Assembly (NCBI GenBank): GCA_903813345.2
Contig: CAIIXF020000001.1
Location: 13,826,001-13,890,000 of the forward strand
Direction: 5' to 3'
DNA length: 64,000 nucleotides
Origin: Owenia fusiformis
Taxonomy: Eukaryota
The notes below the pieces were generated by a model. That model saw nothing but the letters and a program-made list of their open reading frames with translations. It was not told the origin of the DNA and did no database searches. Positions 8,591 to 59,951 of this stretch are shown here, one piece after another (positions within the stretch are counted from its first letter, which is position 1; every line of letters starts with the position of its first letter). The translations under genes were made by a program, and so were the position numbers.

Positions 8591-11500
8591 TCAAGTTGTA
8601 TCCATACTTTCTTCTTCATCACCACACTCAGTGTCCTTTGTTCTTTCTGTTGCTGATGTATTCGGATCATCTGCAGTCTTTAATTTTGGTTCACATACAT
8701 TTGGTTCCTTTATACTGTCATCCATTTGGTTGTCATCATCACAATTTCTCTCAGCATTTTCCTCCATGCTGTCAATTTTAGATTTGATAAGACCATCTTC
8801 TCGAGTGACAGTTTCGTCCATTTTGTTTACATTATCTTCTAATTCATTGCTATTTTCATTATCATCAACAGTATTTCCTTCCATTTTGTCACCATTTTGA
8901 GATCCATCATCCTCAACATTTTCTTTGACAATGTTTAATTCAGCTTGATCACTGGCCTTGAGATCATTACCCAATGGTTCATTCTCATCTTTGTGAATGC
9001 CTTCTTTATGTTCATCCTTTCCTGTTGCAGTCTCATTTTGTGATTCAATTTCCTCTTCCTTTGATGAATCTTCAGATGCAGTCTCATTTTCACACTCTTT
9101 ACTCTCTGTACTTTCAGAATGTTCTTCCTTAGCTTCAGTTTCTTTGTCAGAGTTCTCAGTGTGTTCTCCATTAGAAACATTTGAACTATTTAAAGATTCT
9201 TTTTCCTGAGTGTTTCTGCTTTCATGTGCTTCATCCCCATTTGCCAACACTTTGTCAGGCGCTTCGGTTATAATGTCCTTGTAGTCATCTTGGGTTTCAT
9301 CTTCCTTTGTACTTGAAAGGTATTCTCCCACAATATCAAGACCTATAGAGCCTAGCAAAGCTTGAGTATTTGAGGGAGATATATGTTTAACATCAGTCTT
9401 TTCTTCAGTGCTGTCATCTTTTGATGCCTTTGTTTTCCGTTTCTTCACTACAGATTCATTTTTAAGAGTGTCTGATTTCTTTTTCTTTGCCACTTGGCTT
9501 TTGTTTGTTTCAGGTTTTGGACTTTCGGATTTAGTTTTCTTTGATTTTAAAGTTGAAATTGATTCTGCTTTGGGGATATCGGATTTCTCTTTCTTTGATT
9601 TTGGGGTAGCTTCAGGTTTTGGGGTATCAGATTTCTTTTTTCTCTTAGCAGGATTTGATTCATTATTTGGAGTTTCAGTTTTAGGACTTCTGTCCTTTGT
9701 TCTTGATTTTGATTTAGGAGTTTCTTTGATAGCAGGTATTTCTGGTTTTGCTGGTCTTCCTTCTACAAGTGAATCTATGATTTTGTTGGCTTCTCGTATA
9801 CCACTAAGATAGGCCCCAGTCACTGTCTGTGGATGCTGTCTGTTTGTTGCCTGCAAAAATAACATGAAAATGGTTTTGTTACATAATATGTGTGTTGTAC
9901 TTAACATTTTAAATTCATTGAATAAAATAATTTTAAGGGGGTTCAGAACATTTAGAACATTTAATAGATGCTGATCTGATAGGTTCTGATCTGAAGATCA
10001 TTCAAAACAATCCAATACTGTTAGATTATCTAAATTTAACCTCTGGTGTCCAGGTAGCCAAACTCGTCTGGCCCAGTTATCTACTCGCCGATTCTGAAAT
10101 GTCGTACGACGTCAGGAGTAGATAACTGTGCCAGACGGTTTTGGTTAGTGTCCAGGCAGTTAAAGATTAGCATATCTTCAAAATTACATGCTGTTCATTT
10201 GTTAAAGAACATCTGTAAAATTCAAGTAAGAATGTTCTCACCAACTTGAATTTTGACTAAAAACATAGCTCAGCAAAATAACCACTTATGTAATATATTG
10301 TTTACCTCGCCTGCGAAGTACAACTTGTCAGCTACAGATCGAGCAATCTGGTCAAAGACACTCGCATCACAGCCAACTGGCACATAACTATAGGCCATCT
10401 TGGAGTATGGGTCACTGCTCCAGTGGCTCACATAGTACTTTGTTGGCTTGGGAACATCCTACAAATATGGGAACATGTTTAATGCTTGAATTTCAAATAC
10501 AAGAAGCACTAATATTATGATACATGGATGGACAATATCCACAAATGTATAGTTTGCAAATGATACAGACTTCAGTCTACAGTAATGTAGATACAACTAT
10601 TTACGATTAAAATGGCTTATGTTTTCTTTTCAAATGACAATCTTGATTCAATGGACTTCAAAATTGGTATCATTAAGTGGGTTTACTGATTCCTCCATAA
10701 TAAGCAAAAAGTAGGAGCTGAGACCAATTGTGTAAAGTATCAGCATTTCCATTCAAAAGTTGTTGCCAGATGGAGTGATACAGACAGTGTGAATGCCTCC
10801 ATAAGCACACCATGTGAGCCAAAAATGACTGATAGGGAGTCCAGTTATCATCGCAGGCAGTCAATGAAAGCAAAATGAACAACTGACTTGATATCAAACC
10901 ATCTTATAAATGGATCACCTGGGACAATACCTCCTTTGCTACACTAGGGAAGCTTAACATACCTCCTCAGGGAAGAGTTCATTGAGAATCTTCATTGCCA
11001 TGTCAACCACCTGCTTGTCTGACTTCTGCTGCAGATTACTCAGGGCTTCTCCACATATATGAGTACTCAGAATATAGCTAGCACCTTCCTCATTCTAAAT
11101 ATAAAAGATTGATACATGCAACAGTTTCAAATGTGTGGGCCTGCTGGCTGAATATTATATACAAGATATTTCTAATCTATAGTAAAACATATATATCTGA
11201 TCACCTCTATAATCTAAACACCTCTGAATGTCTGAATGTGAACACCTTTTCAGTCACATCATTGCAATCAGGAATTAGCATATTAAAACCTTGAAATGTG
11301 AACACCTGCCAATCCGAACACTTTAGCTAGTCCAAGTGGCAATAGGATTAGACAGGTTTTACTATACACAAAGTACACCGTTTTGACATGTTCTCAGTGT
11401 GTTTCTTCTCTTATTTCAGTCTATGCATTTATTAAATTCTATACTCTAAGTAGTAAAGAAGTTGATTGATATGAATCATTACCTGTGTTGACAAATCAGT

Positions 11501-14500: not shown

Positions 14501-17500
14501 TTAAGACTAGCCCTTCATAAAAAGTACAAGATTACAACAGCTTTACAAGCAAAATTCTTCAAGTGTATTTTCTGAATTCAAATGAGTCAAAATAATTTTG
14601 AGTTGCACTTTCATGCTTTTCCAAAGTAGCTGACTTTAGTTCATACCTGTTTTAGCTGTTCATCTGAATCAAAGTAGATCTCTTTTGGTAGATTTCTTAA
14701 TATGCCTGTGTTTATGGCACCCTTCTGTGTGAGATATCTAATGATGCGATCTATCTCATAGTGACATCTTATCCTCACAAGACCTCGACAGATTAAGTAT
14801 GGCACACAACGATCCACTGTTAAATACTCCTAAATGATAAAATATGATGTTTTAACACTGGAACTCTGGGCTATATATTAGTGCATATTTACAGGTCAAT
14901 GATACTTTACCAATTTTTATTAAATCTATGAAAATAATCTTTGATCATTAGCTCAAGAACTGCATTTAAAATTGTTACAAAAACTGTGGAGGTCTTAATA
15001 TTAAAACGTATCAGTGTAAGTTATTTTCCATGATGTGTTGTCCAACTGACCAACTGATTACAACTTCAGACGGTACGCTTTAGACTTAGGCTTCATGGTA
15101 TCAGAACTTTCAATGTAAAGACTTACCTTATAATTTAAGCACCAGAGTGACAGCACCAGATTTCTAAGTGAGAGGTACATGTGTTGTGCACTGAAACAAA
15201 CACAGTGTTATGCAATGCATTATTTATTAATTAGTAAACATTAATAAATATATTTAAAACAACTATATATGTCTCTGTTCATTTATTATCAGGAATGAGT
15301 TCTGGCACTAGATATAAAGTGCTTATAGTACAGGTCATATGAATGTTGCCAGATTCTTTAATTTATCAACTTTATAGAAAAACTTTATAGATATCCCCTA
15401 GATTATCATTCTATGGATACTGAATATAGCAATTAGCTCTTACTGGGCATATTCTGAGAATGTCTCCACTTCATCGCTGTCCATCACCTCTGGCTTGTAG
15501 CACATTGCCATGGCAACATCAGTGGGTTCAGCAAACATGTGCATAAATCGACTCGTCCCTGACACATGTGGAGGCCCAGCATCAAAATTATTTTCTTTAT
15601 CTGATAATAAGAGCAAATACATACAAATACATTGACATCAATACAATCAGCATGGGGAAGAGGCATGTGAAATGCCATTGCATACCAGTTGCTACATATC
15701 AGTGACAAGCACTGTAGCTACTTTTACTTTAAAGTTAGTGATCGAGTATCTGGATTAATACCATTTCGTAATTAATTTCAAGCTGCATTTTCATTTCAAG
15801 AAAAGAAAAAAAGAGTATATGGTCCATACAACAATCTGAAATCTCCATAATGCAAGAACAATCCAGCTAAATCCAAGAAATAGTAACTGAAAGGTTTAGA
15901 AAACACTTCCTCTCCAACTAGAATTAACCAAGCAGAATTTTAATTTAATGTACATGTACCTGCTTTAAGGTGTGCCATGTTTGTAGGTAGTTCATTATCA
16001 ACAGCACTGAGGCCCACACAGTCAGGATAATAGGAGGCAAGGAAGGGGGTGGAGGGGGAGAACTTGAGGTATGGAGGCAGGATCAAACTAGTAATCCAGT
16101 TCTCATCTAACACTTCCTCAGCTCTCTAAAACAATCAATGCTTTATTCATTTACTAATATGACTTGACCTCTAACTGATAAAAACATTTTGATCCTATTG
16201 ATTTTTTAAACGAACCTTATTTATTTCTTGAAGTAAAATGGTTCTACTAACAAACATTTAAAGTTATATTCATGGATTCAACTTTATTGTCAAACTAAAG
16301 AGAGGCGGTCCTCATAAACACAACAATGATAATGCCGACTATAATGATTGTACATTATAATGAAAAAATATATAATGTTAAACATTGATTGTATAATTAA
16401 TGGAAATAAATATTTTACCTTGTCCATGGGTTTGGCACATTCTGTCTCTGAAGGGGATCCAGTTTCTTCTTCATCCTCTGACATCCCACACACAAACTTG
16501 CGTATAAATTCAGGTGTCAGCTGGAAATTAGCTGACATCTCTCGCCATTTCCTACACTCATTGCATTGAACCCAGTAAAATAGCACCTGGAATTACACAT
16601 TTTAATTTAACTTTGAAGAGATCTCAAAATTGATGCAAATTAACTTTTTGGCTCCTGGGGTTGGGCTGGGAAAATTAGAACATGGTATATGCTACCAAAA
16701 TTGCATACAGTAATATTTATTTCTAAAATAATCTGATGGTTGAACTAAGTCAAAAAAAGCATTCTAAAAATACAGGCAAATGATGGAAACAGCATCTTTT
16801 ACATGGCATGTCAACTGCAGGTAGGTAAAGAAAGCAACCACATAGCTTGGTCCACTGACAAATTGGCAAAATTCAAGAAATAATTTCTCAAAGGGGATTC
16901 CCCATACTTTGTAAAGAATTCTACTATGTTCACCGACACAAAAGCAAAATAAAACAATTATAGAAACACAATATACTTTTTACCTTTAAATCAATGATAT
17001 ATCAGGGATCATGGCAAACAATATAACAAAAAATATATTCAAATGTACTATAAACACAACTAACTAATCAAAACCAAGCCACAATTTCTTCACCTCATGT
17101 GTGTGTACATAGTATAAATGCCACTTCTCAGAACTGAAACTCAAGCTGAAAGTGAAACTCAAGTAAATTCCATTAACAAAGAAAAGCTGACGTAAATATT
17201 TACATGATTCATAAACATACTTTGATCGTTAGAATCAGGGATGTAATTTTGATTTGACAACAGAAAATTCAGAATAAAGAACTTCAGATCTACACAACAA
17301 GCATTATACTTTACAGATTAAAAGTCAGCCTGAATTTATACCGCTGTGTGGATAACGGTGGTTTATAAAAATCAAGTTTATGATGGACAAGCATTGAAGC
17401 AAGTAGCTCCTTAACTAGGATTATTCATTAAACATCAAAATGGGACAAAAACCTAGTAAAGCATCAGCACAACTTGCTTCAAGTTCACAAAGCAGAGGAC

Positions 17501-20500
17501 GTAGGAGTTGCATGCAGTTTACAGACTGTGAGAACAAGACACTGAAACATAGAAGTCAGTACATCCACAGTACAGATATACCTCCCTACATAGACTGCAG
17601 GTAGGAGTTACGTAATACGTACAGTGGGGTTGTCTAATTGGGAAATACCCTTTTCTTTCTTTTCATACCCCACCCTACTTAGTTTCAGAGGCACAACATC
17701 TTTAGTAGCTTTGCTTTTCATACTAAAAAGAGGTGTTCCTAGGGTTATTAAATTGGGTTACCCTTTCCTGTCTTTTCATACCACACCCTGCTTAGATATT
17801 TTAATTTCTGAGGTACAACAGTCATGTCCTTATTATCTGATGGTTGAACTAAGTCAAAAGGGTTCTTACATGTCTTTAATTTTGCCTTAATTTTCATAAT
17901 GTCATCTAAATACCTGACTAGCCAGCACAGCCAAGTTGAGTATTACTTAGTTTACACAAAGCTATCTCCTGAGAGATAGCTTGCAAAATTCTATATTCCC
18001 AGCCCATGTTAAAGGTCTTTTACAGAAATGTTAGAAATTGTGGGAACACTTACACTTCTTAAATCGATGTATAACATCATAAAGTATCGTTGTAATAATC
18101 GTAGAACGCTAACTGGAGTCGGGAGACAGTGTAATTGACGAAAATGAATTTGGAACTTGTTATTTTCCGTGGCGTCTGAACAGGAAGTCTTGCCAATGCG
18201 CATGCGTGTAATCGGAAGCGGAAATCTCATGACATGGAAGCGCAATGCACATTACTCAACTTCCTGAGAAGCCATCTTGAAAATTATCATCTCTTCAACA
18301 TTTTTTCCACATTTTTCGTCAATTACACTGTTTCCCAAGTGAGCACAGTGACTTATGCTTTTCATACTAAAAAGATGTGTTTCTAAAAAGCTTGAGTTCA
18401 CTAAGGCAGTAGATAACTGCACGTCAGAACAATGAATCAGCAATAAAAATAGACAGTAGGCTATTATTCACAAAAACAAAACATTAGCATCTTGAAAGCC
18501 CATGCTTCTAGGCATTAGTGTCAAGTCCTTTTGTTTGGTTGTTTGGTTAAAAGCAGCTCAATCAATATAAACCACATTGTTTAAAAAAGTACCCTTTCTT
18601 TTTTCACAACGATATTCAGAATACAAAAACTATCCAACTTGTAATTTTTGTCCGATTTCTTCTGAAAGATTTAGGTTGCCAACAAAAAATAGTATGCCTT
18701 CATCGGCCTTCCAATTTTAACATGTACCAGGTACACTTAGTACTGGAAGTTATTATATTCAACCATTCAGAGACAGCAATTAATGCCTTTATACATTTGT
18801 ATTTTAGTGATCGTCCCCCATGCTGGTACTGGGAGACTTGTAAGAGACAGGATGGCTATGAACATATGGCCAAGTACCTCCATCCATGGGAACTAGCCGG
18901 TGAGTTGAAACGTTACAATAATAGGCCTGATAGTACAACCCCCCTTATCATACCCATAATAGATTCTTATCTCATTATGTACAGGGGTCAATCACACAGT
19001 AATTGGTTCATGGGGGACACTGTTCAAGGATCCCCCTGAATTTTTTTTTTCTTTCCTGATAAAGCCAAAAATATATTTCTCAAGATTCTACCTTAAAACC
19101 AAAACATTTTTCTAACAGTGTTCAGGTACAGAATATTTTACAGCTGATGAAGGTCATCTTGACTTCAGTTTGTACTAAATGATAAATTACCAACAACACA
19201 CAAGAGTTATTTTAAGGTGAACATATGTTAGCGCACTGACTCTAACAGTCATATTACTTCACTGTTTTTGTCTGTCATGTAAATAAAATAAAACACTCCA
19301 CCCTTTAAATAATAAATAGCACTTGTGATAATGGATTAATGGGTTTGATAATTATTAACTTTGAATTAAAATCACCCTATCATAACTTTCATTCAACTGT
19401 CTGATGTCAAATTCAAGAGCTTACACATGAGTATTTGGCAGCAATGCATTTTTAAAATTTTTATTCCTCTTCCAAACTATATGCTTTAAATAGTAATTTT
19501 CCTTATGTTCTACATGAAGAATTTCTGTTCAGTTAATACACATTTTTACATAATAAGGGTCATTAAAACTTGTTTCTTTGTTAGATGTTAGACTGGGATA
19601 TTGTAGTTTTTTTGACCATTTAAACTTCAAGCATCAAATTAACACATTTTCCTCTTTAAGACACATTTTGATGGTCTGAAATAGCAAACGTGCTTAAACA
19701 CCATTTCACATATTATGACAATATGAAAGTTAGACTGTATATAGCATTTGGTATGTTAAATTGCTACATAAAATTTAGGTAAAATTGCAATTTGACTTGA
19801 TTTGGTTTGACAAAAGATGGTGTATTTAATCAGACAGGGTGATATGGTTTCATCATGATTTATTTATGTTCACCTTCAATCTCATTTTTGATTCAGATGA
19901 AGTGCGGACAGTCCTGATTGGTAAAACAGGGGCGGGCAAAAGTCTCTCATGCAATACCCTACTGGGCAAAGAGAAGTTTCAGAGTGTCCTTGGTTTCCAG
20001 TCAGACACAAGTTCTTGTCAGTATGACTATGTCAACTATCAAGGGACGAAATATATGATCGTCGACACTCCAGGAATATTTGACACGAGAGTCAAAAAGG
20101 ATCAGAATGCTATCGAACTGTTGAAGTGTCTGAGTATATGTGCCCCAGGGCCTCATGTTTTCCTCATCACTATAGCGATAGGACATGGACGGTATACAGT
20201 TGAAGATGAGACAACGGTTGAGCTATGCCGTAAAGTATTAGGAGATGGTATGTTAAATCATGCAGTTGTGTTGTTCACTTGTGGTGATAAACTGATTGAA
20301 GAGAATATGACTGAGGAAGAGCTGATGAACAATTCCCCAGAAACACTGAAGAAACTGATCAAAGATTGTGGTGGACGTACATTTATTATAAACAATAAAA
20401 CCAGCCGTGAACACAGAACCAACCAAGCGAAAGACTTGATGATGAAAATCAGTACATGGGGCCTTGATAAAACTGCATATGAAGACAAACATGGACTTTT

Positions 20501-23500
20501 CAAGAAAATAGAAGGAATATTTATGAAAGAACAACTGGAAAATAACACTTCACGAGACGAAATTAAGCAATCTATAATAAGAAACCTGCGTAAGGCAAAG
20601 CCTATCATGAAAACAATTATAACAGCTATTGGCCCAATGATGGGCGAGATACCACACCAATATGCACAAGGAATTTCCAAAGTAATGACAGTAGTTACAC
20701 CAATGCTGATTATTCCATTGCTAGATCACTGGGTAGATGATGACATAAAAGAAACTCCTGATGGTTAGTGGAATAGCAAGAGTATACATGCCCTGAACTA
20801 TTATGCAAGTATGGACATAAAGGATGAATCAGGAAATATGCACATAATTGGCCCTTGCTTAAATGTATTCGAAATATTGATTATTTTATTGTGAAATAAA
20901 ATACACCTTTTATGAATACTGATGCATAATTGACCTTCTGCTGTAAATCAAATAAAGATAAATTGTTTTCATAGTTCAATGTATTTTTTAATGTTTTAAA
21001 TCATGATGTACAACAATATATTAGTACAACATCAAAGTACTAGCATTTCAATGTTAAAAAAATGTTACAGCACTTGTGAAAGACTTAGATGACTTTTTGT
21101 TGTTGTTGGGCATTGAAATGGAGGGAATTGGTTTATGAAATGCTTCAACTGAAACAGAACTTTTTTTACTCCACTTTGATCAGCCACATTTAATTTAGCA
21201 AACAGATTCTATATTTTTTTAACTTCAGTTAAATACCAAACACTTAGATTCTTTTGGTGTTGGTAAATCATACTTACAGCATGGAACATTTTTTTTGTCC
21301 AAATTAGTCAATATAACAATAGTTATACTAATGGTGCACAGCATATTTGTATACAGGGTGTCCCGAAAAGTATGGGGCCACCCCTAGGTAGACATGTACC
21401 TGAGATGGCACGAGAGGACACATTGACTAGTGATTTGGTGTAAAATTAAACTTAATTTTGACCAAACACTAAATTTTTAAATGCCTGTAACTTTTTCCCA
21501 TTTGAGAGTTGAACCATGATACTTGGCAAATCAATGTAAGTTTGGATAAACTTTAAAATGATATATGACACATACTATTACAACACTGGTATATGTCTGC
21601 CTAGGGGGGGGGGGGCATACTTTCGGGACACCCTGTACATGAAAAGAAAACTTCGAAGACTGACAAAAGCTTAAGTAATGACCAATAATGAAGTTCTAAG
21701 TCAAAGAATGAAACACCACTGGCCAACAGCTATTACCCATCAATATACAATAATACACCTCTTTGAAATATTTTACATACCTGATCGATCATGAATGTTT
21801 TAATTGTAGGTTCTGTTTTTCCATTCTCTGACCACTCTTTCTTCCACTGTTCCAGCATGGGAAATCCTGCCTTCTGACTGAAACAAACAATTGAGAACTT
21901 TCACTTGATCTCTTGTGGTTTACTCTATTTCTTAAAATATTAATGAAAAGCTTTCCACATGAATCCATGAAATGGTTTGGCTGGAAACCTGTTGACATTC
22001 CTTGACAGACAAGATTTTAGGAAAAAAATCCAAAATAGACGGTAAAGATTAAAAGGTGGATTGGATCGAGTGGATTGGGTTCATGTAAAAGGTGGATTGG
22101 ATTGGCTATCTTCAAAATATGGATTTTCCTTTAAAAAATTCTATTGATCTCCCTTTAGGAAGATTGGTGCTCTCTTCACTTGCACAGTGTCAAATAATAG
22201 ATGTAATATTATTTTGCTTGGGTGGGCTAGAAGGTTGACCTGGTACCTGCTTTCTGATACACGATCTTATTCATTCCAAGTGTAATTTGAGACATTTCAT
22301 AAATCATAAGGCAGACTGGTTTGAAGATCCATATCTGTTTTCAATCCAAACTGAACATACCAAAAATGTTTTGTGAACATTCACACATTAATTTGAATGA
22401 CAGGTTTTCTTTTTCTAAAGATCTATGTCTTACAAAAGTTGATTTACAAGGGAAAGCAAGAGTGTCCCTGAACTAATTGGAGTATGTATTTGTCATTGCT
22501 TTGTTCTGATTTCTCAAAAGGGACCTGTAAAACTGTAGAGGGAAATCAACAGAATTTTTTTTATAAGAAATTCCACATTTTGAAGATTCCCGATCCAATC
22601 CACCTTTTACATGAATCCAATCCACTCGATCCAATCCACCTTTTAATCTCTACCAAATAGACACCCTAACATTTATCCAGACTGCCTAAAAACTAATCAG
22701 CTTTAAACTTTCGTATGTAATAATATCCATAAAAATTTCAATACAACATTTACCTAGCATTTACCTTACATTTAACATTTACCTAACATTTACCCAGACT
22801 GCCCAAAAACTAATCAGTTTTAAACTTTCTTACGTAATAACATCCCTAAAGATTTCAGATGAATCCATGAAACGGTTTGACTGGAAACCTGTAGGCAAGC
22901 CTCGACACACAAGATTTCCTTAATATTTAACCAGAATGCCTCAAATATAATCAGTTCTAAACTTTCGTAGGTAGTAACATCTTCAGGAGACAAGGGGATA
23001 TGAGGGTTAGACACACCCCTAGGGGTTGCCTTTTTATGTACAGTGTTTGTAATCATGAATGAGAAATGAGAAATAAACTGAACAGAATTGAATTGAAATG
23101 TGAATTTACTTATATCTATAGTAGGCTAGGCAAATGGAAGTTTAACATCCCAAAAATTGCAACAGTTTTTAAATTAGGCTTATATTGTATATTGATACCA
23201 GTTGAAAAACATATCAAAAATATAGAAAAATATATGCAGTGGACAAATATGAAATGTCACATTCCAGGTACCCCCCTCCAAATTTGAGTATGGGATTGTA
23301 AATATTTTTTTATTTCAAAATGGAATACTCTTGTCAACTAAACGAGTAATATTATGATAGTTTACTGACATAAGAGCAACTAAAAATTGTTAACCAACTA
23401 TTTGAGTGCAATAATTGGCATTTCTAGCGCCAAATATCTGAAAATAGGCCATCAAATAGCCCGAATTTAATATAACAATGTATTTATTTCTGTATCAATT

Positions 23501-26500: not shown

Positions 26501-29500
26501 TAATAACCATAAATTCGTTTCTACAGCATTATACATCCAATTGATAGTTCCATAGTAATGTACTCTTATGTAATGATTTATTTATCTGATGAATTTAAAT
26601 ATATGCAAATTTAGTAATTGCGGATTGTAATTAATAATTTAAACAATATTAAATTCCACAAAAACTACAACTTACATTATTTAGATAAGCCTAGTATAGA
26701 GCAGTTATCAAATACCCTAATATCAGAGTGGTGATATGTAATTATTCATCAAATAAAAGTGAGGTCACCTTAACATTTCACCTGGTGCAACTAATAATTC
26801 CTATTTTTCATACTAATAAGGTATAAACCTTCACAAAACTTGTATTTTAGATGATGACAAGCCTATATAAATGATTTAGATGTCAACTCTAATACAAATG
26901 TGATGCATTGTGGGAGTTAATCATCAAAACTATAGTCTCCCTTATAGTGGGCGGGGCAAAACTATGAAAATGAAATAATTTTTTTCTTCCTAAGTATACA
27001 CCTTAGAATTCTGACACTCACCAAATATGAAGTTCATATGAATATGTAACACCATAATTTTTTTCATGCTTTTCTGACTAACTGATCCTAAAATATCTAA
27101 ATAGATATGTGATAACATGCCTGTTTTGTGGCCTATTTTGTTATACTTTGGAGTCAAATGACCAATTACTGGTCTCAAAATTGATTAAAATGATATTTTA
27201 ATTATTTGTGAATGTGTGATCTATCATAATAAAGCTTGAATACTTGACTAAAGTATTCCATTTGGGAAGAAAAAATTGTTTCCTACCAATACTCAATTTT
27301 GGGGTAGGGTTGTAGGGGGTAACTAGGAAGTGAAATTTCATATTTGTCCACTGCATACATTTTTCTATATTTTTGATATGTTTTTCAACTGATATTAATA
27401 CATAATATAAGACTAATTTAAAAACTGTTGCAATTTTTGGGATGTTTGGGCCTTTTATGAGCCCATTTGCTTGGCCTATAGCATCACATAACTTTATCAG
27501 GCTTCAAATACACTATAAAACTATTAACAGTCAATACTTGACCTTGTTAAAGCCAAACATAATTTTATCAGGTGTCAGATACATAAGTACACAGTGATAT
27601 TGCAGAAATACATGTAAAAACACATGGTCTAGACATTTTATAATGGCTCCTTTTAAACTATATGGGGACTATAAGTCCCAGCCAGTTAGGGCAGTAGCAT
27701 TAATGCTGAGGACAAACAACATTGACTTTGACTTTGTATCCTGCCCTTTGGAACCAAAGGCTGGCCGTAAGTATACATATATTATTACCTGTACATATAT
27801 TAATTTGTACATTAATTTTGTATTGTAATAGTTGAATCACTGACTGAACTTAATTTCATCCATATCTTTATTTTTCATATACAATATACATTTTCTTAAA
27901 TAAATGACCCCTCCTTTTAACTATAAACCATCACCACTTTTTAACCTATGTGCAAGTATACAGGTAAAATAAGGGGGGGGGGGGGGGGGTTGGTGACTTA
28001 CCCCTGCAACTGAAAACTGCTAATATAAATTCAAAGTTTCAAGATGGCTACCTCAACTCTAGGTCATAACAAGAATTTAAGGAATATATAGAGAATGCCA
28101 AGTTCATTATGACCAACTGATGAATCATATAATTTCAATTTCTAAATCACATTTCAACTTAATTAAACTAATTGACTCTTCAAAACGAGTAGCTATTTAA
28201 AATAAGAGATCAAGACAATGCTTCCAGGTCAAGTCGACCCAAAGTCATCTCAAACCATGTCAACATAATTGTTTTGTCACTATTTTTTTGTTTTCATTAC
28301 ACAATATAATAAGGTCTAATAAGGTATAAGGACCCTTAAACCAAAAAGTGGAAGATATGAGACATAAAAAAGTTTACATTTACAGATATCTTTGATACTT
28401 CACTAGTTATTAAATTCATCCATCATGTAGTTTCATTTCATTAATTTTATCATTGTTTTACAGGTAGAATTGGGACAGAAGAATATGCGACAAATGTTAA
28501 CCCATTTAAAAGAGTCCCGACACTTGTTGTAGAAGGAGTAGCACATATCTGTGAGAGGTACACATTTTCCATATTTTCTCTGTCAGTATGTAATCAAATT
28601 AATTTATTATGTTCAAAAAGCCTATCTTGTCACTGTCCACATATTTGCCTTTTCTTTGGATGATGTACATTATAAATGTATAACTTCACATCTTCTTTAT
28701 ATCAAGCTCTGCAGCCCTGCAGTACCTAGCTGAGCTGGAAGGGGTATCTCCTCACTGGTACCCAAGGAGTGGGAAGGAGAGGATCCTTGTGAACACATAC
28801 CTGGCCTGGCATGGTCCTGATGTGAGAAAATATGCATCAGGATACTTTGTCTCCACAGTAAGTCTCACATTTCTACAAGTATTTCACTGAGAACACTAAG
28901 ACAAAACCTTGCATTAATCTCTATATAATAATAACAATTCCCCTATATGTGATTGCAATGAAAAAATTTGTGTTAACCACAAGTCACAATGTGTCAGATC
29001 AGATCAATTGGGAATTAAATTAACAAAAATAACTATATCTAGTAGATCAAATAAACTGAGATTAACTTCACCGTTAAATAAAATAAAACACAGATCTAAA
29101 TCAATAGTGATAACATTACAAACAAGCATATCATGTAAATTTAATAACTTGTCATTTGTTCTACAGTTCTATGGGCCTTTGTTCCTTGACAGACATTTCA
29201 CAGATACACAGGTGAAAGAATTTAGAGATGGATTTGAGGCTCTCCTGGACAAACTTGAAAAAATCTGGCTGAAGGAAACCCCATATCTTGCTGGGAATGA
29301 CATCACAATAGCTGACTTACAACTAATCACAGAACTCACACAGGTTGAGTCAACTGGCTATGATATGGTGAAAGGTAGGCCCAAGTTGGAGGCTTGGATG
29401 CAGCTAGTTAAGGACATACTACAGCCACATTATGATGCAATCAGTGAGGAGCCTTTGACTGGATTTGCAGACCAATATAAGGAATACAAAGCATCAAAAT

Positions 29501-32500
29501 AACATTTATGTGACTTATGTATTCCAAAGACAGTTTTAAATACTACCATTTCATTATGCCAGGCTTAATTTCCATTAAAAGCCAAACATTGCAAAATATG
29601 CTGCCTGATCCTATAATACCCAAATTGGTGACTGACAACCTCTTTTGTATATAGGAAATTGTAATTGAAAAATAAATATTGATTATTAATAAAAATAGTT
29701 TGATTTTGCTCCTCTAAAAGAGAACTTCATGTACACTCTGACTGAGCGGTGATGCTTTGATCTAACCTTAACTGATTAGAATACTTGGAAGATCAAATCC
29801 AGAGCCCGATCAGAATAGAATTCATTTAATCTTATGTTTTTGTAAGTACATGGCAATCATTTCACAACAGAACACTCATTTAAGGCCATAACAGCTATTT
29901 TTGAGGCGATTTAAAATCAAACGGTTATATTCACTAGTACTCCACACAAGTAAAAGGTTTACCTTCTATAATAGTACTCGAAGCAGTCATTGCAGTAGTG
30001 CTCTCCAGCTGATAGATGGTACCATCGTGATGTCATGCCATCTCCACAGCAACTAAATATTAATATACAAAATATTTAGTCTATCAATTCAATTTGTATT
30101 TACGCTGTTCAAAATGTATCTTTATGCCAACTATAATCTCAATGTATCAAACCAATATGAGACAAGGCATTAACATGCAAAATGTCACCACCTGCCATTT
30201 GTTACAGATGCCAACCACCAAACACCAACTGCAAAACACCATCCACAAAAAAGTTGGAGACTTTAACAATATGTCACTACTTGTCACTATGCGTATATGT
30301 GCAAATATTCAATGGGGAAGGTGTTCAGTTTGTAAAAAGACAAAGTTATTTCATTATGGTTTAACCCTCCCTTTCCCTCATAAAACAAAATTAGAAAATG
30401 TTGATTTGCCTTTCAGTTGTTTTTTCAAAAGATCATTTTTACACTCTCATTTGCTTAACCCCCATCCAGTTATATGGACTTTGTTAAAATCATAATAAGA
30501 GAACGTAAAATATTTATGTATTGATCAGTATATATTTGTGATGGGTAGAGAGTAAATCTTGTTTAAGAACATCGCAAATCAGCCCCCACCCTCTTAGCTA
30601 CTTTCAATTACAAACAGATACAGGTAAATAGAGAGGATGTAATGCTAGTAGCCTAGTAGTTAAAGAAATCTGCTAATGCAAACTCACCGTGCAGCACAAC
30701 GTATGGCACAGATAGGAATATCAGAAGTACAGCGAGACATCCCACACTTTCTATACATAGATCCATCTGGTCTCTCCAAAATCACATCTCTCTTCTTCAC
30801 CTTCTTATCTTCAGATTGGCCTGGGCCTCTATTATATGCAACAAAATATATGATCACAAACTCACAAATTCACGAAATGTTTAACGTTTTAAATACTGTA
30901 CATGAAGTAATAGTGTTTTCAACCAAATATGTAATCTAAATCATATCAAAGATTTTTCTAGTTTATACCTATGACCATGTGCAATGTTCTTTTTCATCAA
31001 TTTCTTATAATGGGTTAAAAATTCTCATTTAGATACAAATGGATTCACCTTGGTGAAATTTTATTTCCAAATTCTAAACTAAGTGTTGCACACACATGAA
31101 TGCCTTTCATTAACTTATATTGATTTAACATACTTTGGAGACTGAACTGCAGCAGCAGACTTTGGTGTACTTGGTGCTGACTTGATGACTTTAACTTTCT
31201 TTGGTCGAATCTTATCTTGTATGTTCTTAAAATTTATTGTCCCCTCTGCCGGTGCAGGCTTGGATTTCTTCTTTGGTGATTCAACAATTGGCTTTGATTT
31301 CTTCTTTGGTGACTCTACAATGGGTGTATTTTCTGCAGCGGCCCTCGCTTTATCTTCAGCTGATTTTTTCTGACTCCTTGGACTCTTAGCGTCTTCTTTT
31401 ACTGCCTTATCCTCGACTCTAGGGCTTTTTGATGAAGAGTTGGGCGATGAGATTTCTTTTGGTGATATGTATTCTTCTTCATCGTAACGTTTTTTAGGTT
31501 TACGGGCACGCTTGCCTTCAACAATTATCGGTTGATGGAATAAGGGGAGATATTCAGCATCAACTCCCATGTTCTCTTGTGGAATAGGGACAGCAAGTTC
31601 TTTCGGAACATTTTGGCTGATAGGTTTTTGACTCCTAGAGGTTTTCTCAACCTTCAATGTATCCTCACTTGGTACTTGAGATCCATTTTCTGGTTCTAGA
31701 GTTTGTGCTATTTGACTACCAGTGTTATCATTTTTATTATCTGGTGTAGTTTCTTTAGGGCTTGTTTTTAAGGAGGTATTGGTATCATCTTCAGCATTAG
31801 GTTTTTCATCAGTTACATTTTCATTACTTGTATTACTGGACACAGAAAATCTCTTCTTTGAAGGGCGACCACGGCCTCGTTTAGGCGATACTAGTGTCTC
31901 AGTCTCTTTTTCCAGTACACTTTTCTCATCTTCTTTGACATCTCCCGCATCATTTAATTTTTGTTCAGTAAGAGCATCTCCTTTTACTCTAATAGTTTCA
32001 GGTTCATCTTCTGGTTTAGCAGGTGTTTCATCATTTATGTTTTCATTACTTCCATTACTTGACACAGATAACCTCTTCTTTGAAGGGCGACCACGTCCTC
32101 TTTTAGGCGATACTAATGTCTCAGTCTCCTTTTCCAGTTTAACTTTCTCATTATTGGGTACAATTTTTTCATCTCCTTTAACATCCCCTTCATCATTTTG
32201 TTGTATTACAGCATCTCCTTTCGCTTCAACAGTTTCAACAATAGCGTCATCTTCAGTGTTAGGTTTTTCATCAGTAATGTTTTCATTACTTACATTACTT
32301 GATACAGATAACCTCTTCTTTGAAGGCCGACCACGTCCTCTTTTAGGCGATACTAATGTCTCAGCCCCCTTTTCCAGTATAGTATTCTCATTTTCAGGTA
32401 CAATTTCCTCATCTTCTTTATCATTTCCTGCATCATTTGACTTTTGTTCTGTTAGAGTACCTTCCTTTTCTCCAATAGTTTCCTGTTCATCTTCCAGTTT

Positions 32501-32608
32501 AGCACGTTTACTCGTTGGTGTACTAGTGATGCTATCATTGTTGTCATCTCCTATAGATTGTAAACTTTTCCTTGGACGTCCTCGTTTTCTCGTGCTTGCT
32601 TCTTCCAT
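8591..32608 (-). CDS. KDM1B: Lysine-specific histone demethylase 1B (LSD2/AOF1), 18 coding exons, ~1681 aa, with long N- and C-terminal extensions
   Basis: Phase-consistent GT-AG exons (minus): 32608-31134, 30828-30688, 30052-29963, 21877-21781, 16586-16419, 16125-15960, 15600-15444, 15190-15127, 14829-14647, 14229-14020, 13769-13598, 13116-12857, 12524-12450, 12052-11936, 11608-11483, 11094-10963, 10458-10306, 9850-8591 (sum 5046 nt). Domains: LSD2 C4H2C2 finger ([12 protein letters not shown]...[31 protein letters not shown]), CW finger ([12 protein letters not shown]), SWIRM ([12 protein letters not shown]...LICRGLVRI...[12 protein letters not shown]), and amine oxidase ([53 protein letters not shown]). 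Confidence 0.93.
10055..10147. mobile_element. 93-bp hairpin MITE with 9-bp TSD
   Basis: TAGCCAAACTCGTCTGGCCCAGTTATCTACTC ... GAGTAGATAACTGTGCCAGACGGTTTTGGTTA flanked by GTGTCCAGG at 10046-10054 and 10148-10156. Confidence 0.8.
16893..17159 (+). promoter_or_regulatory. Putative immune-inducible promoter of the PBZ-GIMAP gene
   Basis: GGGGATTCCCC (kB palindrome) 16893-16903, TATAAAT 17113-17119, TTCTCAGAA (GAS/STAT) 17125-17133, GAACTGAAACT 17131-17141 and GAAAGTGAAACT (ISRE/IRF-E) 17148-17159, lying 280-550 bp upstream of ATG 17440. Confidence 0.5.
17440..20768 (+). CDS. AIG1/GIMAP-family GTPase with N-terminal myristoylation motif and two PBZ-like CCHH zinc fingers (3 coding exons, ~374 aa), nested antisense in a KDM1B intron
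   Basis: Exons 17440-17600 (ends phase 2, ag|GTAGG), 18808-18899 (TTTTAG| ... g|GTGAGT) and 19897-20768 (TTCAG|) join in frame. GTPase motifs: G1 GKTGAGKS, G3 DTPG, GIMAP conserved box [14 protein letters not shown]4 FTCGD, G5 INNK. AATAAA at ~20896 and ~20951. The GTPase exon is very secure; the two upstream exons are my inference from splice phase and motifs. Confidence 0.85.
21354..21635. mobile_element. Tc1/mariner MITE
   Basis: TA-CAGGGTGTCCCGAAA(A)GTATG ... CATACTTTCGGGACACCCTG-TA. Confidence 0.85.
22041..22654. mobile_element. MITE with ~60-bp TIRs and 8-bp TSD (hAT/MULE-like)
   Basis: GGTAAAGATTAAAAGGTGGATTGGATCGAGTGGATTGG ... CCAATCCACTCGATCCAATCCACCTTTTAATCTCTACC; AAATAGAC at 22033-22040 and 22655-22662. 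Confidence 0.85.
23122..27478 (-). mobile_element. Academ-like (AcademX) DNA transposon relic
   Basis: ~200-bp imperfect TIRs (TAGGCTAGGCAAATGG...CCATTTGCTTGGCCTA) and a 3-bp TSD TAG (23119-23121 / 27479-27481). Degenerate minus-strand fragments: [14 protein letters not shown] / [11 protein letters not shown] (XPG/PIN-like, ~26190-26390), [20 protein letters not shown] (~25380-25445), and Cys-rich [25 protein letters not shown] (~25190-25275). Confidence 0.8.
24000..24551. mobile_element. Tc1/mariner-like MITE nested in the Academ relic (left end eroded)
   Basis: GAGCCAAAAAAGGTAACCCAA ... TTGGGTTACCTTTTTGGCTCGCCCTG-TA. Confidence 0.6.
27643..29502 (+). CDS. Glutathione S-transferase, theta class (4 exons), nested antisense in a KDM1B intron
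   Basis: Exons 27643-27766, 28464-28557, 28707-28857, 29167-29502 join in frame: [18 protein letters not shown] (theta SQP motif), [63 protein letters not shown]. Confidence 0.92.
30162..30290 (-). repeat. Short dispersed HINE-like repeat family (ACAAGGCATTAACATGCAAAATGTCACCACCTGCCATTTGTTACAGA)
   Basis: Copies at ~49-100, 4555-4650, 12088-12232, 12600-12755, 14272-14430 and 30162-30290, and inverted at ~48900-49037 and 52027-52132. ATGTCACC/GGTGACAT subterminal IR and terminal GCAT..ATGC hairpin. Confidence 0.75.
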
Positions 32609-33851
32609 TCCTGAAAATAAAACTTCTGGTCTTAAGTACAAATGATGATATTATAGCAGTACTTTGAACTTGATTATTTTAAACTTGCTATATATTAGCA
32701 GCAACCCTGTAATATTCGCAAAAATTGTGCAGCATTTAACAAGTAGCTAAATACATACATGATCAAGGTTGAAGCCAGGGACTGGTGAAGGCATTTTCTT
32801 AAAATAGGTGATGCAAATTTAAACAGAAGAAGCAAAACTTAAGCAAAAAAGGATTTTATACTCCTATGTGACATAATTTTCACAAGTATTGTGTAGAACT
32901 GTCTACAATTTGAAACTACTTCTGAAATTACAAGTACCTCGTAGTTGAGTCGAAATACTGTACCCTCTATTTTTACATGCACCTTACTATTTAATGGATC
33001 GGATGGTCTGCCTTTATTATCTTTTCACTTATTGAAACATATAGAGTACATGTACATTTGAATGCTTTTTAGCTTGTTTTTAGTCAAACAAGTTCATAGT
33101 ACCACCAGAGCTTATATAGGGAGACTCATGGCTCAATAAAATTCTAGTACCTCTGATACATGACATACATATCGGTTAAAGTGCCAGCTGTAAAATTATC
33201 AGTGTATGGAGTTAAGAATAGCTAGAAAGTAGAGGCTTGGTTCATTTTGGGTGTATTTTGAGGTATATAATACATTTTCAGTGAAGATTTCCAAAGGTGT
33301 ATTGAAAATCTTTGGGTAATAACTGTAACAATTTGATAATTAACCTTCACAGTTTAGGTGAGTACATTCATTTGGTATCATTAAGAAATCAATTAATTTC
33401 ACTGCCAAAAAAACATTTAGCCTGCAAAAACATAAGCAGAAAGTCATACTGATTGCTTCATATCGACAAGCGAAAACACTTTTACAGGGAAAACATATCC
33501 AAAAACACCATTTCAAATGAAACTGAAAATTAATTGTGTCAGAAATATTTTACTTATTTTAAAATTGGACTAATCTTGACTTGCCTATCTTACAAGATCT
33601 ATTATTTTTCATTTATCAATTTATTCATATTCATTTCTCAACTACAATTAATTGCAGGTTAATCTGTGCCTACAAGCTTGTTTCGGTTTGTTCTTAATAC
33701 AATTATACTACCATGTATTGTACCAAAAAGCATTAAATACAAACCTACAATATACAGAAAAGTAATATCGGCCTAAACAATTTTTCTGAACTCATATTTT
33801 TGAAATTGTAATGGTAGGTCGTAGATTATAGTAAACAAATATGTCAAGACT

Positions 33852-58596: not shown

Positions 58597-59754
58597 TTAA
58601 TCAAGTTTAAACCATTTTTCAAATCCAAACATTTCATAGTCTGTGGCATATCTTGCATATATTCCATTAATTGTTTGAGAGGTAAGGTTGCTATAGTAAC
58701 TTTGAAGTCTTGCTGTTGTTTTAGGCTGACTGAAAGGGAAAATGTATTTATCAAGATTTGCATGTGCTAAGGTAAAGTTGGCATCTGTGTTAAGAGTCCT
58801 AAAATCTCCAATGGCATCATAGTGGATGGTACATGGGGTGCATAATTCATTAAAAGATAGCCAATGTGGATCTTGTGGACGATTTCTTCGGTCAGTTACA
58901 TATTTTACAAACTCTTCAAAAGTAGGTATTCCTTGTACAATCTCAGCATATGTAGGGTTATGACGATATCTTTTAACCATATTTGATCCAAAGTGTTTTC
59001 TGTAATAACCTCCCTTGACATCTATGAACTTTGATTTCCAGGCAGATGGAAGTCTTTCTATTGGATCGCGCACAAACATGAATTTGAAAAATTCCCCTTG
59101 AATTTTTTTCTGCCTCTTGCTATCGAGAAAATTCAGATGTGTAAGGATCCTCCCTTCGTACCATTTGCTCCAATTTGGTCCTCTTTGACTCAACTGTATA
59201 TTAGTCTCATTTAAATCATATTTGCTAGCAGTTAGAATCTCTCTCCATGTGGTGCTGGCGACTTTAGGTGTATAGCAATATAGAATCTTTTTCTTCAAAT
59301 CAACATAAATGTTACCATTTGATATTTCCTTTCTAATCTGGGCTTTCTTTTTTCTCAGTTTCTCCAGTCTTTGACAAGTATTTTCAATCCTTTTTTGTCT
59401 CATTTTCATGTATGTTTCAACATCATTCTCAATTATCGCAGCTTGGGTTTGAAGAATATCACCATCCCCGACCTTGACTTTCTCATCCCTGACCTTTGCT
59501 TGATTGTTAAGATCACCATTTTCATGATATCTATATGCCTCTTGTGTCAACTTTCCCATTGACAGTTTTACATCCCCATCAATAACAGATTCCAGTTCAT
59601 CAATTTCTTTTGAACTTTCCTCCCAAAGGTGCAGTTCTTTGACACCATGGAAACAAAAGCACATAATTATAAAGGAAGTAATTACATGTAGTATAATCAG
59701 TATTGTGATTAACTCTGAAATGTATTTACGTTTGAGGTTTTTGAGGAGAAGCAT
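58597..59754 (-). CDS. Golgi carbohydrate sulfotransferase (Sulfotransfer_2; CHST8-14/HNK-1ST family), single coding exon, nested antisense in a VPS13B intron
   Basis: 385-aa ORF with a type II N-terminal TM helix (ISELITILIILHVITSFIIMCFCF), 5'-PSB CYTPKVASTTW, 3'-PB FMFVRDPIERLPSAW, DPHW...LCTPC..HYDAIG, and C-terminal YATDYEMFGF. Candidate acceptor for an upstream UTR intron near 59926. Confidence 0.92.
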   Translation of the reverse strand: MLLLKNLKRKYISELITILIILHVITSFIIMCFCFHGVKELHLWEESSKEIDELESVIDGDVKLSMGKLTQEAYRYHENGDLNNQAKVRDEKVKVGDGDILQTQAAIIENDVETYMKMRQKRIENTCQRLEKLRKKKAQIRKEISNGNIYVDLKKKILYCYTPKVASTTWREILTASKYDLNETNIQLSQRGPNWSKWYEGRILTHLNFLDSKRQKKIQGEFFKFMFVRDPIERLPSAWKSKFIDVKGGYYRKHFGSNMVKRYRHNPTYAEIVQGIPTFEEFVKYVTDRRNRPQDPHWLSFNELCTPCTIHYDAIGDFRTLNTDANFTLAHANLDKYIFPFSQPKTTARLQSYYSNLTSQTINGIYARYATDYEMFGFEKWFKLD

Positions 59755-59951
59755 ATTGTTGTTGTTTTCTGTGTAACAATGTCTTTCTTTGTGATATTAA
59801 GGTGGGCCAAATTATCACACTCTGCCTTTCTAAATGTTAAATCTCAGTTAGTATGTGAGCAGCATTATGAAGACAAATCAATGTAGACAAATTCTCCTCT
59901 TTGCAAAGTCTTTTTTCGGTGACAATCTGAAACATATGTGAAAGTTTGTCA

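Follow-up and report, generated by a model that had tools for sequence, protein, structure and literature searches.

Gene structure

The window (the whole 64-kb stretch of Owenia fusiformis DNA analysed here) carries a gene of three coding exons at 17440-20768 on the forward strand, in which a pair of PBZ-type fingers precedes a GIMAP GTPase domain. The gene is real and spliced, and its features are as follows.

17367..17439, +, 5' leader; the transcript-like contigs X2 record 9 and X3 record 17 begin at 17367
17440..17600, +, coding exon 1, 53 codons plus 2 nt, with the start codon, MGQKPSK, a variable Ser/Ala-rich stretch and finger 1
17440..17460, +, N-myristoylation-type motif M-G-x-x-x-S-K (pattern match)
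17509..17568, +, finger 1, C-x5-C-x6-H-x5-H, with the spacing of a PBZ finger but degenerate where such fingers contact ADP-ribose
17601..18807, +, intron 1, 1207 nt, GT..AG, phase 2
18808..18899, +, coding exon 2, 92 nt, encoding finger 2
18821..18883, +, finger 2, PBZ-type zinc finger C-x5-C-x7-H-x5-H (Pfam PF10283, hhalign, paralogue conservation)
18900..19896, +, intron 2, 997 nt, GT..AG, phase 1
19897..20768, +, coding exon 3, with the AIG1/GIMAP GTPase domain (PF04548), a helical C-terminal extension and the stop codon
19920..19943, +, P-loop (G1) GKTGAGKS, read directly from the sequence, in near-invariant columns of alignment A3
20496..20747, +, C-terminal helices beyond the G domain in the predicted structure, the last one hydrophobic but below the usual transmembrane value
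20769..21084, +, 3' untranslated region, minimum extent; X3 record 23 spans 19992-21084

Joining the three exons by their coordinates with a script gave 1125 nt containing 374 codons and a single terminal stop, with the ATG at 17440 and the stop codon at 20766-20768 as read from the sequence. Exon 1 ends at 17600, directly before GTAGGA, and exon 2 ends at 18899, directly before GTGAGT; the acceptors TTTTAG and ATTCAG lie just before 18808 and 19897 respectively. These results confirm the gene model of the initial annotation, which had placed two small upstream exons in frame with the AIG1 exon (GT..AG introns of phases 2 and 1, a product of 374 aa). The main ATG stands in the context ATCAAAATGG and is preceded in the covered leader by in-frame TGA and TAG codons and by a 5-codon upstream ORF (17380-17397). 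The locus stands alone, outside any GIMAP array, and a multi-copy repeat occupies approximately positions 17855-18378 inside intron 1.

Transcript and protein support

Four public runs (X1, X2, X3 and X9), which are RNA by presumption and not on record as RNA, were compared. Joint 17600^18808 is carried by intron-skipping contigs in two of the four (X3 and X9, from two studies), and joint 18899^19897 is found exactly in one (X9); X3 also carries it, with three altered letters where exon 2 ends. No splice joint was found in X1 or X2, where the contigs read from exon 1 into intron 1. Intron bins outside the repeat have zero depth in X3 and X9, and exon depth is approximately 3-15 in X9 and 34-105 in X3. 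At the protein level, the NCBI entry P0121 (143 aa, 'unnamed protein product, partial [Owenia fusiformis]') crosses both splice joints and is identical to residues 1-143 at 143 of 143 positions.

The partial state of this public model, the continuation of X1 and X2 contigs into intron 1 and the presumed nature of the runs could be read as signs of a prediction artefact or of a pseudogene in decay, whose fingers would be motifs that arose by chance within introns or UTRs. We consider this very improbable in view of the open frame of 374 codons, the contigs that skip both introns at GT..AG and an order of parts that is common to two paralogues. The 35 coding differences listed (21 synonymous and 14 nonsynonymous, with 41 further differences lying outside the list) give a pN/pS of about 0.18, which argues in the same direction, and they leave all eight zinc ligands unaffected. 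A six-frame search of the window for C-x5-C-x6-9-H-x5-H also returned only two stop-free matches, namely fingers 1 and 2, against a mean of 0.07 and a maximum of 2 in 100 shuffles.

The GTPase domain

Exon 3 is, on profile and model evidence, an AIG1/GIMAP GTPase domain and GTPase activity is predicted for it. It matches PF04548 (AIG1) with 163.6 bits against a cut-off of 27 (E 5.4e-48), in agreement with the initial annotation, and sequence matches to GIMAP7, 2, 5, 4 and 1 range from E 2e-35 to 5e-26. The G motifs and the conserved box (P-loop, DTPG, APGPH...GRYT, FTxGD and NNK) occupy columns that are invariant or nearly so in alignment A3 (67 sequences), and the Arg of GRYT aligns with an Arg of GIMAP7 that we take to be the catalytic arginine finger of that protein. 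A model of exon 3 (pLDDT 80, pTM 0.80) retrieved GIMAP7 (3zjc) first in Foldseek, with E 1.2e-18 and a TM by target of 0.79, followed by GIMAP2, 5, 1 and 4 and then Toc34. Its C-terminal helices are predicted at residues 200-215, 219-244 and 267-283, the last at low confidence, and the hydrophobicity of the tail peaks at a Kyte-Doolittle mean of 1.48 over 19 residues.

The domain thus shares its G motifs and its helical C-terminal extension with the vertebrate GIMAPs (GIMAP7 3zjc, GIMAP2 2xto, GIMAP5, GIMAP4 and GIMAP1), although identity to the GIMAP7, GIMAP2 and GIMAP5 chains is only about 28-31%. Unlike them, the Owenia protein has an N-terminal lipid motif and zinc fingers and lacks a clear C-terminal transmembrane anchor. 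Accessory domains joined to an invertebrate AIG1 domain are also found in multi-domain proteins of Biomphalaria glabrata, where the sections of PMC7053062 consulted report Death, CARD, kinase, ARM-type and Hint domains; 'zinc finger' has no occurrence in the main text of that paper.

The closest relatives are two O. fusiformis proteins, P0001 and P0002, both encoded on a different chromosome-sized contig and both with MGxxxS, finger 1, finger 2 and AIG1 in that order. Across the 374 residues P0001 is 69% and P0002 50% identical to the window product. They differ from it in that P0001 has 28 additional residues separating finger 2 from AIG1 and in that the tail of P0002 is more hydrophobic, with a Kyte-Doolittle value of 1.71.

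The N-terminal lipid motif

The PROSITE-style N-myristoylation pattern begins with M-G, has an allowed residue at position 3 and a small residue at position 6 and excludes Pro from position 7. The window product agrees with it throughout, its first Met being the true one, and it carries Lys at positions 4 and 7. The MGxxxS start is present in all three AIG1 paralogues (the window product, P0001 and, from an internal Met, P0002) and is absent from P0122, another bearer of the two fingers. Residues 1-19 are just 37% and 26% identical to the paralogues and MGxxxS is nonetheless kept. The N-myristoylation consensus that had been seen in MGQKPSK therefore holds up as a conserved motif behind a leader with in-frame stops, and lipidation itself is predicted.

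Finger 2

Finger 2 is, by profile comparison, a true PBZ-family zinc finger, as was claimed from its spacing. It matches Pfam PF10283 (zf-CCHH) with 30.3 bits and E 4.1e-7, the gathering cut-off being 22.7, and its hhalign comparison with 16 PBZ fingers from outside Owenia yields a probability of 94%. Its sole match in the PDB is APLF (two distinct chain sequences, both of APLF). Finger 2 is furthermore the most conserved segment of the protein, with 93% and 80% identity to the paralogues, the corresponding values of the G domain being 75% and 57%. Five O. fusiformis proteins carry the two-finger cassette: three GIMAPs, a partial protein of 128 aa and one protein of 3952 aa. The PF10283 scores of the other bearers are 31.8 (P0001), 27.9 (P0002) and 37.1 bits (P0122), whereas P0123 remains under the cut-off with 15.4 bits.

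PMC6264785 gives the ADP-ribose contacts of APLF as Y381/Y386/R387 and Y423/Y428/R429, with Y423 contacting the adenine and R429 the phosphate. Finger 2 retains two of the three contacts, the residues at these positions being Tyr, Lys and Arg, and P0001 and P0122 keep all three. The contact pattern noted by the initial annotation is thus present as C-x-Y and C-x-R, with Lys at the second adenine-contact Tyr. The first contact Tyr occurs in all six Owenia finger-2-type fingers and the contact Arg in four of them. The residue aligned to APLF Y428 varies: it is Lys here, P0001 and P0122 have Tyr, P0002 has His, and the second and third fingers of P0123 have Asp and His respectively. The Gly of the C-x-Y-G consensus, which is present in 14 of the 16 comparison PBZ fingers (P0124, P0126 and P0127), is replaced by Trp in 6/6 of the Owenia fingers. 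Because of this Trp and of the Lys at the Y428 position, the ligand of finger 2 may differ from PAR or may have been lost.

Both the Trp and the variable second Tyr position, as well as the low score of P0123, favour an alternative in which the PBZ-derived cassette no longer reads ADP-ribose and instead serves as a lineage-specific zinc adaptor, joined to several scaffolds in Owenia, for another ligand (a protein, a nucleic acid or the head group of a lipid) that controls the GIMAP. We treat this as a serious though doubtful alternative. It has to contend with the curated PBZ threshold passed by finger 2 in four of the five bearers and with the retention of the first Tyr and, in most fingers, of the Arg, while the extreme conservation of finger 2 would equally suit a small fixed ligand or a protein partner.

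Finger 1 and the tandem cassette

Finger 1 is, from its alignment, a conserved, degenerate partner of finger 2. The ends of the two fingers, Y-I-H (finger 1, x6) and Y-L-H (finger 2, x7), both fit [FY]-x-H and the ligand spacing, and the sequences and spacings of both fingers agree with those given in the initial annotation. Finger 1 alone gave no Pfam match at E<=10, and hhalign against PBZ gave a probability of 10% (P 7.6e-4). Against an ad hoc PBZ HMM it scores 10.8 bits, around the 99th percentile of the CCHH controls (10.1 bits for 1000 random CCHH sequences; the 95th and 99th percentiles of 1000 shuffled sequences are 8.5 and 12.7 bits). Among the five cassette bearers, finger 1 scores 10-14 bits in four and -0.4 bits in the remaining one. 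The claim that finger 1 is a PBZ finger stands for its ligand spacing, and beyond this its likeness to the family is borderline. Its contact positions hold Gln, Glu and Asn (none of the three ADP-ribose contacts), which agrees with the degeneracy described earlier.

Lacking the three contacts and a Pfam match, finger 1 leaves the protein with at most one competent finger. The residues R, C, F, C, H, R, I, H and S of this finger, together with a D-I-P linker, are nevertheless invariant among the bearers, and such conservation in the absence of contacts suggests that finger 1 has a function of its own, as the adaptor alternative would expect.

A profile of the cassette ranks APLF first among PDB entries, in one alignment across both fingers that sets the finger 2 Tyr on Y423 and the Arg on R429. 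The cassette resembles the APLF tandem PBZ (PDB 2kqb and 2kuo) in its two consecutive CCHH fingers and short linker, and differs in having a linker that the alignment shows to be shorter by 7 residues, a finger 1 without contacts and a Trp in place of the consensus Gly. The proposed APLF-like tandem is hence collinear with APLF, but the match is weak (E 0.03), a further point for the zinc adaptor. The host proteins also differ, APLF being a nuclear repair factor and the Owenia protein a GTPase with a lipid motif. An AlphaFold model of P0121 built from four aligned sequences had a mean pLDDT of 40.9, which is too low for use.

Exon shuffling had been suggested by the presence of one finger per exon. 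That arrangement is confirmed, whereas exon 2, with phases 2 and 1, is not a symmetric shuffling unit, and it is the whole cassette that recurs (P0122 and P0123).

Distribution of the architecture

CHFR and SNM1A are single-PBZ proteins. Together with the multi-PBZ protein P0126 of the rotifer Adineta steineri they belong to the same Pfam family as finger 2; none of the multi-PBZ matches has AIG1, and their fingers are of the C-x-Y-G form. Public protein searches found the two-finger cassette in no organism besides O. fusiformis, to which the combination of lipid motif, PBZ-type finger pair and GIMAP is so far confined.

A literature search for PBZ (or its Pfam name) together with GIMAP/AIG1 returned no paper. 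The fusion was claimed to be undescribed, and this holds for the literature searched; the architecture is already present without a name in public database entries of the same species (P0001, P0002 and the partial model P0121). In the PBZ literature examined, including PMC6264785, PBZ fingers are described as poly(ADP-ribose) readers that act in the nucleus, and PBZ proteins are assigned to DNA repair, and a membrane-bound cytoplasmic PBZ reader would therefore be without precedent there.

Possible function

Little is understood of the signals that act upstream of GIMAP GTPases, which are immune-associated scaffolds. The reading that we tentatively favour, at something close to an even chance, is that the locus expresses a 374-aa GIMAP GTPase with a lipidated, ADP-ribose-reading N-terminal module, where lipidation, ligand, avidity and immune role are inferred. 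The myristoylated N-terminus would anchor the GTPase on the cytoplasmic face of a membrane, and finger 2 would recognise an ADP-ribose polymer or an ADP-ribosylated protein of extranuclear origin. In PMC6264785, single PBZ domains are described as binding PAR about 1000-fold more weakly than tandem ones. Whereas APLF gets avidity from two fingers, GTP-dependent self-assembly of the GIMAP might supply it to a single competent finger. ADP-ribosylation, by host PARPs under stress or infection or by a pathogen enzyme, could then recruit or trigger the GIMAP scaffold. The solitary position of the gene, outside a GIMAP array, counts against this reading; nothing found here links the gene to infection, and its immune role is putative.

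According to PMC6264785 and a further PBZ paper, what a PBZ finger binds is the adenine and the phosphates of a single ADP-ribose unit or of two such units. This might suit a cassette that senses a small ADP-ribose-derived nucleotide, e.g., from NAD-cleaving immune enzymes, and not protein-bound PAR, which would make the GIMAP a second-messenger effector. The predicted position of the protein at cytoplasmic membranes and the presence of the cassette on unrelated large proteins of the same genome would be compatible with such sensing. It is nonetheless improbable, as no analysis result indicates such a ligand and the P0122 tail has no family match.

In a broader version of the ADP-ribose reading, which we regard as unlikely, the cassette would be a movable module that reads ADP-ribose or a derived signal and that the Owenia lineage has placed on at least three unrelated scaffolds (the three GIMAPs, the 3952-aa protein and one more). 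These would jointly form a cytoplasmic, membrane-proximal defence network, separate from DNA repair, that senses ADP-ribosylation and has the assembly of GIMAPs among its outputs.

The weight of the fusion is limited by its being known from one annelid species and by its function being so far a proposal. It suggests a concrete input for GIMAPs, namely ADP-ribosylation, as well as a non-nuclear role for a PBZ finger, and it extends the invertebrate joining of accessory domains to AIG1 to readers of the ADP-ribose type.

Gene structure and splicing

The gene under study consists of three exons on the forward strand, which encode a first zinc finger, a second zinc finger and a GIMAP-type GTPase domain respectively. 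Its boundaries carry the following signals:

17440, forward strand: start codon ATG, in the context ATCAAAATGG
17600, forward strand: 3' end of exon 1, followed by a GTAGGA donor
18808, forward strand: start of exon 2, preceded by a pyrimidine-rich acceptor ending in TAG
18899, forward strand: 3' end of exon 2, followed by a GTGAGT donor
19897, forward strand: start of exon 3, preceded by an acceptor ending in CAG

Splicing the three exons by coordinate gives 1125 nt and 374 codons with one stop, at the end. Computed from the coordinates, intron 1 is 1207 nt long and in phase 2 and intron 2 is 997 nt long and in phase 1. The in-frame three-exon model of the initial annotation, with phases 2 and 1, is thus upheld, and both joints are also crossed by a public protein, P0121 (143 aa; NCBI 'unnamed protein product, partial [Owenia fusiformis]'), which equals residues 1-143 of the product letter for letter. 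Covering residues 1-143 only, this public gene model stops short of the full product.

Twelve public sequencing runs from one organism, guessed to be RNA, were found to share 0.08-0.20 of sampled words with the window, and contigs from four of them (X1, X2, X3 and X9, from three studies) were compared with it. The predicted joint 17600^18808 was recovered in two of these four presumed RNA runs, where one X3 contig and one X9 contig skip 17601-18807 with GT..AG ends, and is absent from X1 and X2. The second predicted joint, 18899^19897, is exact in the same X9 contig, which skips 18900-19896 with GT..AG ends; the X3 contig has the same joint and differs by three letters in the final codons of exon 2, as an allele might. 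Exons are covered in both X3 and X9, and depth is zero in the intron bins except at a repeat, which is a cDNA pattern. No joint was observed in X1 and X2, whose contigs continue from exon 1 into intron 1 and represent either unspliced RNA or DNA; the reading frame of this form would end two codons past exon 1.

Between contigs and window, 35 coding differences were listed (41 more differences exist), 21 synonymous and 14 nonsynonymous (pN/pS ~0.18). None of the 35 affects a zinc ligand, and one of the 14 nonsynonymous differences falls in the G domain. An Rfam search of 16500-21500 gave no match.

Intron 1 contains a multi-copy repeat (17855-18378) with a summed contig depth of 1772 in X1 and 1167 in X2, compared to ~10-100 on exons, and with many loose contig ends at 17943 and 17974-17982. 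It resembles a small transposable element of the inverted-repeat type, with 24-nt inverted arms (18121-18144 and 18313-18336) that are 96% complementary. Direct repeats of 30 nt occur at 17712 and 18356.

GTPase domain

Profile search bore out the AIG1 identity proposed for exon 3 (PF04548, 163.6 bits, E 5.4e-48). Among solved structures its best relatives are GIMAP7, 2, 5, 4 and 1 (E 2.3e-35 to 4.8e-26), and a structural model built from 67 aligned sequences (pLDDT 80, pTM 0.80), with long helices C-terminal to the G domain, was matched by Foldseek to GIMAP7, GIMAP2, GIMAP5, GIMAP1, GIMAP4 and then Toc34. The P-loop, DTPG, the APGPH...GRYT box, FTxGD and NNK all lie on invariant or near-invariant columns of the 67-sequence alignment.

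Identity of the zinc fingers

The finger strings and spacings of the initial annotation match the sequence exactly. Across all six frames of the window, the stop-free motif C-x5-C-x6-9-H-x5-H occurs twice, as finger 1 and finger 2 only, compared to an average of 0.07, and at most 2, in 100 shuffled windows. A tblastn search of the 64-kb window with the 374-aa product found no further AIG1 or finger copy.

The tandem-PBZ assignment holds by profile for the second finger only. Finger 2 scores 30.3 bits against the Pfam PBZ model (cut-off 22.7), and a profile of six Owenia finger-2-type fingers matched, at a probability of 94%, one built on 16 PBZ fingers of three proteins from outside Owenia. 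Finger 1 has no Pfam match at E<=10. Against an HMM of the 16 non-Owenia PBZ fingers it scores 10-14 bits in four of its five bearers and -0.4 in the fifth, compared to controls (99th percentile of 10.1 bits for 1000 random peptides with the same Cys/His positions; 95th and 99th percentiles of 8.5 and 12.7 bits for 1000 shuffles of finger 1), and hhalign against PBZ gave P 7.6e-4 with a probability of 10%. Because of these three results finger 1 is judged PBZ-like chiefly in its spacing, with at best a faint extra signal.

When the PDB was searched with a profile of the whole cassette of two fingers, the tandem PBZ of APLF ranked first; this match is weak (E 0.03), with a single alignment placing finger 1 on the first PBZ and finger 2 on the second. 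An AlphaFold model of P0121 (4 aligned rows) had a pLDDT of 40.9, too low for a fold comparison with APLF.

Contact residues for ADP-ribose

In APLF, Y381/Y386 and Y423/Y428 touch the adenine and R387/R429 touch the phosphate, and tandem PBZ domains bind poly(ADP-ribose) (PAR) ~1000 times better than single ones, as reported in PMC6264785; branched PAR is read by both APLF fingers together, as reported in PMC6089979. In our alignment the three contact positions are occupied by Tyr, Lys and Arg in finger 2 of the gene under study, by Tyr, Tyr and Arg in the GIMAP paralogue P0001 and the 128-aa partial protein P0122, and by Gln, Glu and Asn in finger 1. In addition, all six Owenia finger-2-type fingers have Trp at a position that is Gly in 14 of the 16 comparison PBZ fingers. 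The contact residues and the Trp in place of Gly together suggest that one finger at most would be canonically competent for PAR, with an altered pocket. In the main rival explanation, the altered fingers may now bind something other than ADP-ribose.

Distribution and history of the cassette

Among the best 120 of 205 AIG1 relatives, PF10283 was found in just two proteins, P0001 and P0002, both O. fusiformis GIMAP paralogues. An exhaustive phmmer search of 1.84 billion representatives with finger 2 gave nine matches at E<=0.001:

P0121, P0122, P0002 and P0123: O. fusiformis proteins (four of nine)
P0124, P0126 (from a rotifer) and P0127: multi-PBZ proteins without AIG1 (three of nine)
P0125 and P0128: false matches, low-complexity repeats with no Pfam family (two of nine), excluded from every finger count

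Including P0001, the cassette is borne by five O. fusiformis proteins, namely three GIMAPs, the 128-aa P0122 and the 3952-aa P0123. P0123 carries the cassette with its linker and a third, finger-2-type, finger at its C-terminal end (residues ~3800-3900), and a Pfam search of it found no family save one PBZ match under threshold. In P0122 the MG start is missing, and the cassette continues into a helical tail (residues 74-128) with no Pfam family beyond noise, no relative among longer proteins at E<=10 (308 candidates) and all Atlas structural neighbours below the bar. A likeness of this tail to a nucleotidyltransferase N-terminal helix was considered and dropped, as no search supports it.

No part of the GIMAP paralogues is better conserved than finger 2, which is 93% and 80% identical to that of the gene under study; their G domains reach 75% and 57%. 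The three cassette GIMAPs are mutual closest relatives and the next are 35-42% identical among the matches listed, which would fit a single fusion followed by duplication. The initial annotation had seen one finger per exon as a sign of exon shuffling; exon 2 is flanked by a phase-2 and a phase-1 intron, which makes a single-finger exon an asymmetric unit for shuffling. It is the cassette as a whole that moved. Queried with residues 1-95 of P0001, a word-based search recovered P0001 alone (one match from eight candidates) and is uninformative on spread. In P0001, 28 additional residues (~93-120) separate finger 2 from the AIG1 domain, possibly encoded by another small exon.

N-terminus and C-terminal tail

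The start MGQKPSK fits the N-myristoylation pattern, as proposed, and this putative signal is found in all three AIG1 forms (the gene under study, P0001 and an internal Met of the partial model P0002). It is kept even though residues 1-19 are just 37% and 26% identical among the GIMAP paralogues; the start of P0122 does not fit the pattern. The transcribed leader has in-frame stops 5' of the main ATG, so a longer N-terminus is not likely.

The same leader contains a five-codon upstream ORF (17380-17397) that is in frame with the main ATG and ends at a stop. One X2 contig skips 58 bases at 17308-17367 with non-canonical CT..AT ends; an intron is less likely here than an indel allele of the leader or promoter.

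A transmembrane hydropathy value is usually taken as ~1.6. The C-terminal tail of the product is hydrophobic. Its best 19-residue stretch reaches 1.48, and a transmembrane tail anchor is not claimed; the P0002 tail has a value of 1.71.

Proposed reading

Literature searches on PBZ/zf-CCHH with GIMAP/AIG1, on PBZ-GTPases of invertebrates and on annelid or O. fusiformis GIMAPs found nothing, in agreement with the earlier remark that no PBZ-GIMAP fusion was described. Snail AIG1 is joined to death, CARD, kinase, ARM-type and Hint domains (PMC7053062), and 'zinc finger' has no occurrence in the main text of that paper. Judged from its sequence, the architecture appears to be a new accessory-domain addition to a known GTPase family, so far in O. 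fusiformis alone.

For the observed gene, with its domains, their conservation and the reuse of the cassette, the best explanation would be a GIMAP tethered at the membrane by a putative lipid, whose PBZ-type finger would link it to ADP-ribosylation outside the nucleus through a presumed ligand. Avidity might come from a presumed self-assembly of the GIMAP, and the protein may have an immune role.

Other features of the window

The following further features were annotated:

16293-16592 and 8591-9997, reverse strand: head-to-head gene upstream of the GIMAP gene, with a CW-type zinc-finger exon (PF07496, E 2.6e-9)
28918-29502, forward strand: glutathione S-transferase C-terminal exon (PF00043, E 2.6e-9)
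31115-32650, reverse strand: 511-codon ORF containing an RGRGRP core in each of three long repeats
39996-40907, forward strand: VPS13-like gene (VPS13_N, E 4.1e-54), with more long ORFs at 49927-55181
45694-47877, reverse strand: reverse-transcriptase ORF pair of a non-LTR-type retroelement (RVT_1, E 1.2e-30)
58597-59796, reverse strand: single-exon sulfotransferase (PF03567, E 8.8e-41)

The head-to-head gene also has a long Lys/Glu/Ser-rich exon with no Pfam family. No Pfam family matches the 511-codon ORF at E<=0.001, and its RGRGRP core is AT-hook-like. The retroelement lies on the strand opposite to the VPS13-like gene, presumably inside an intron.
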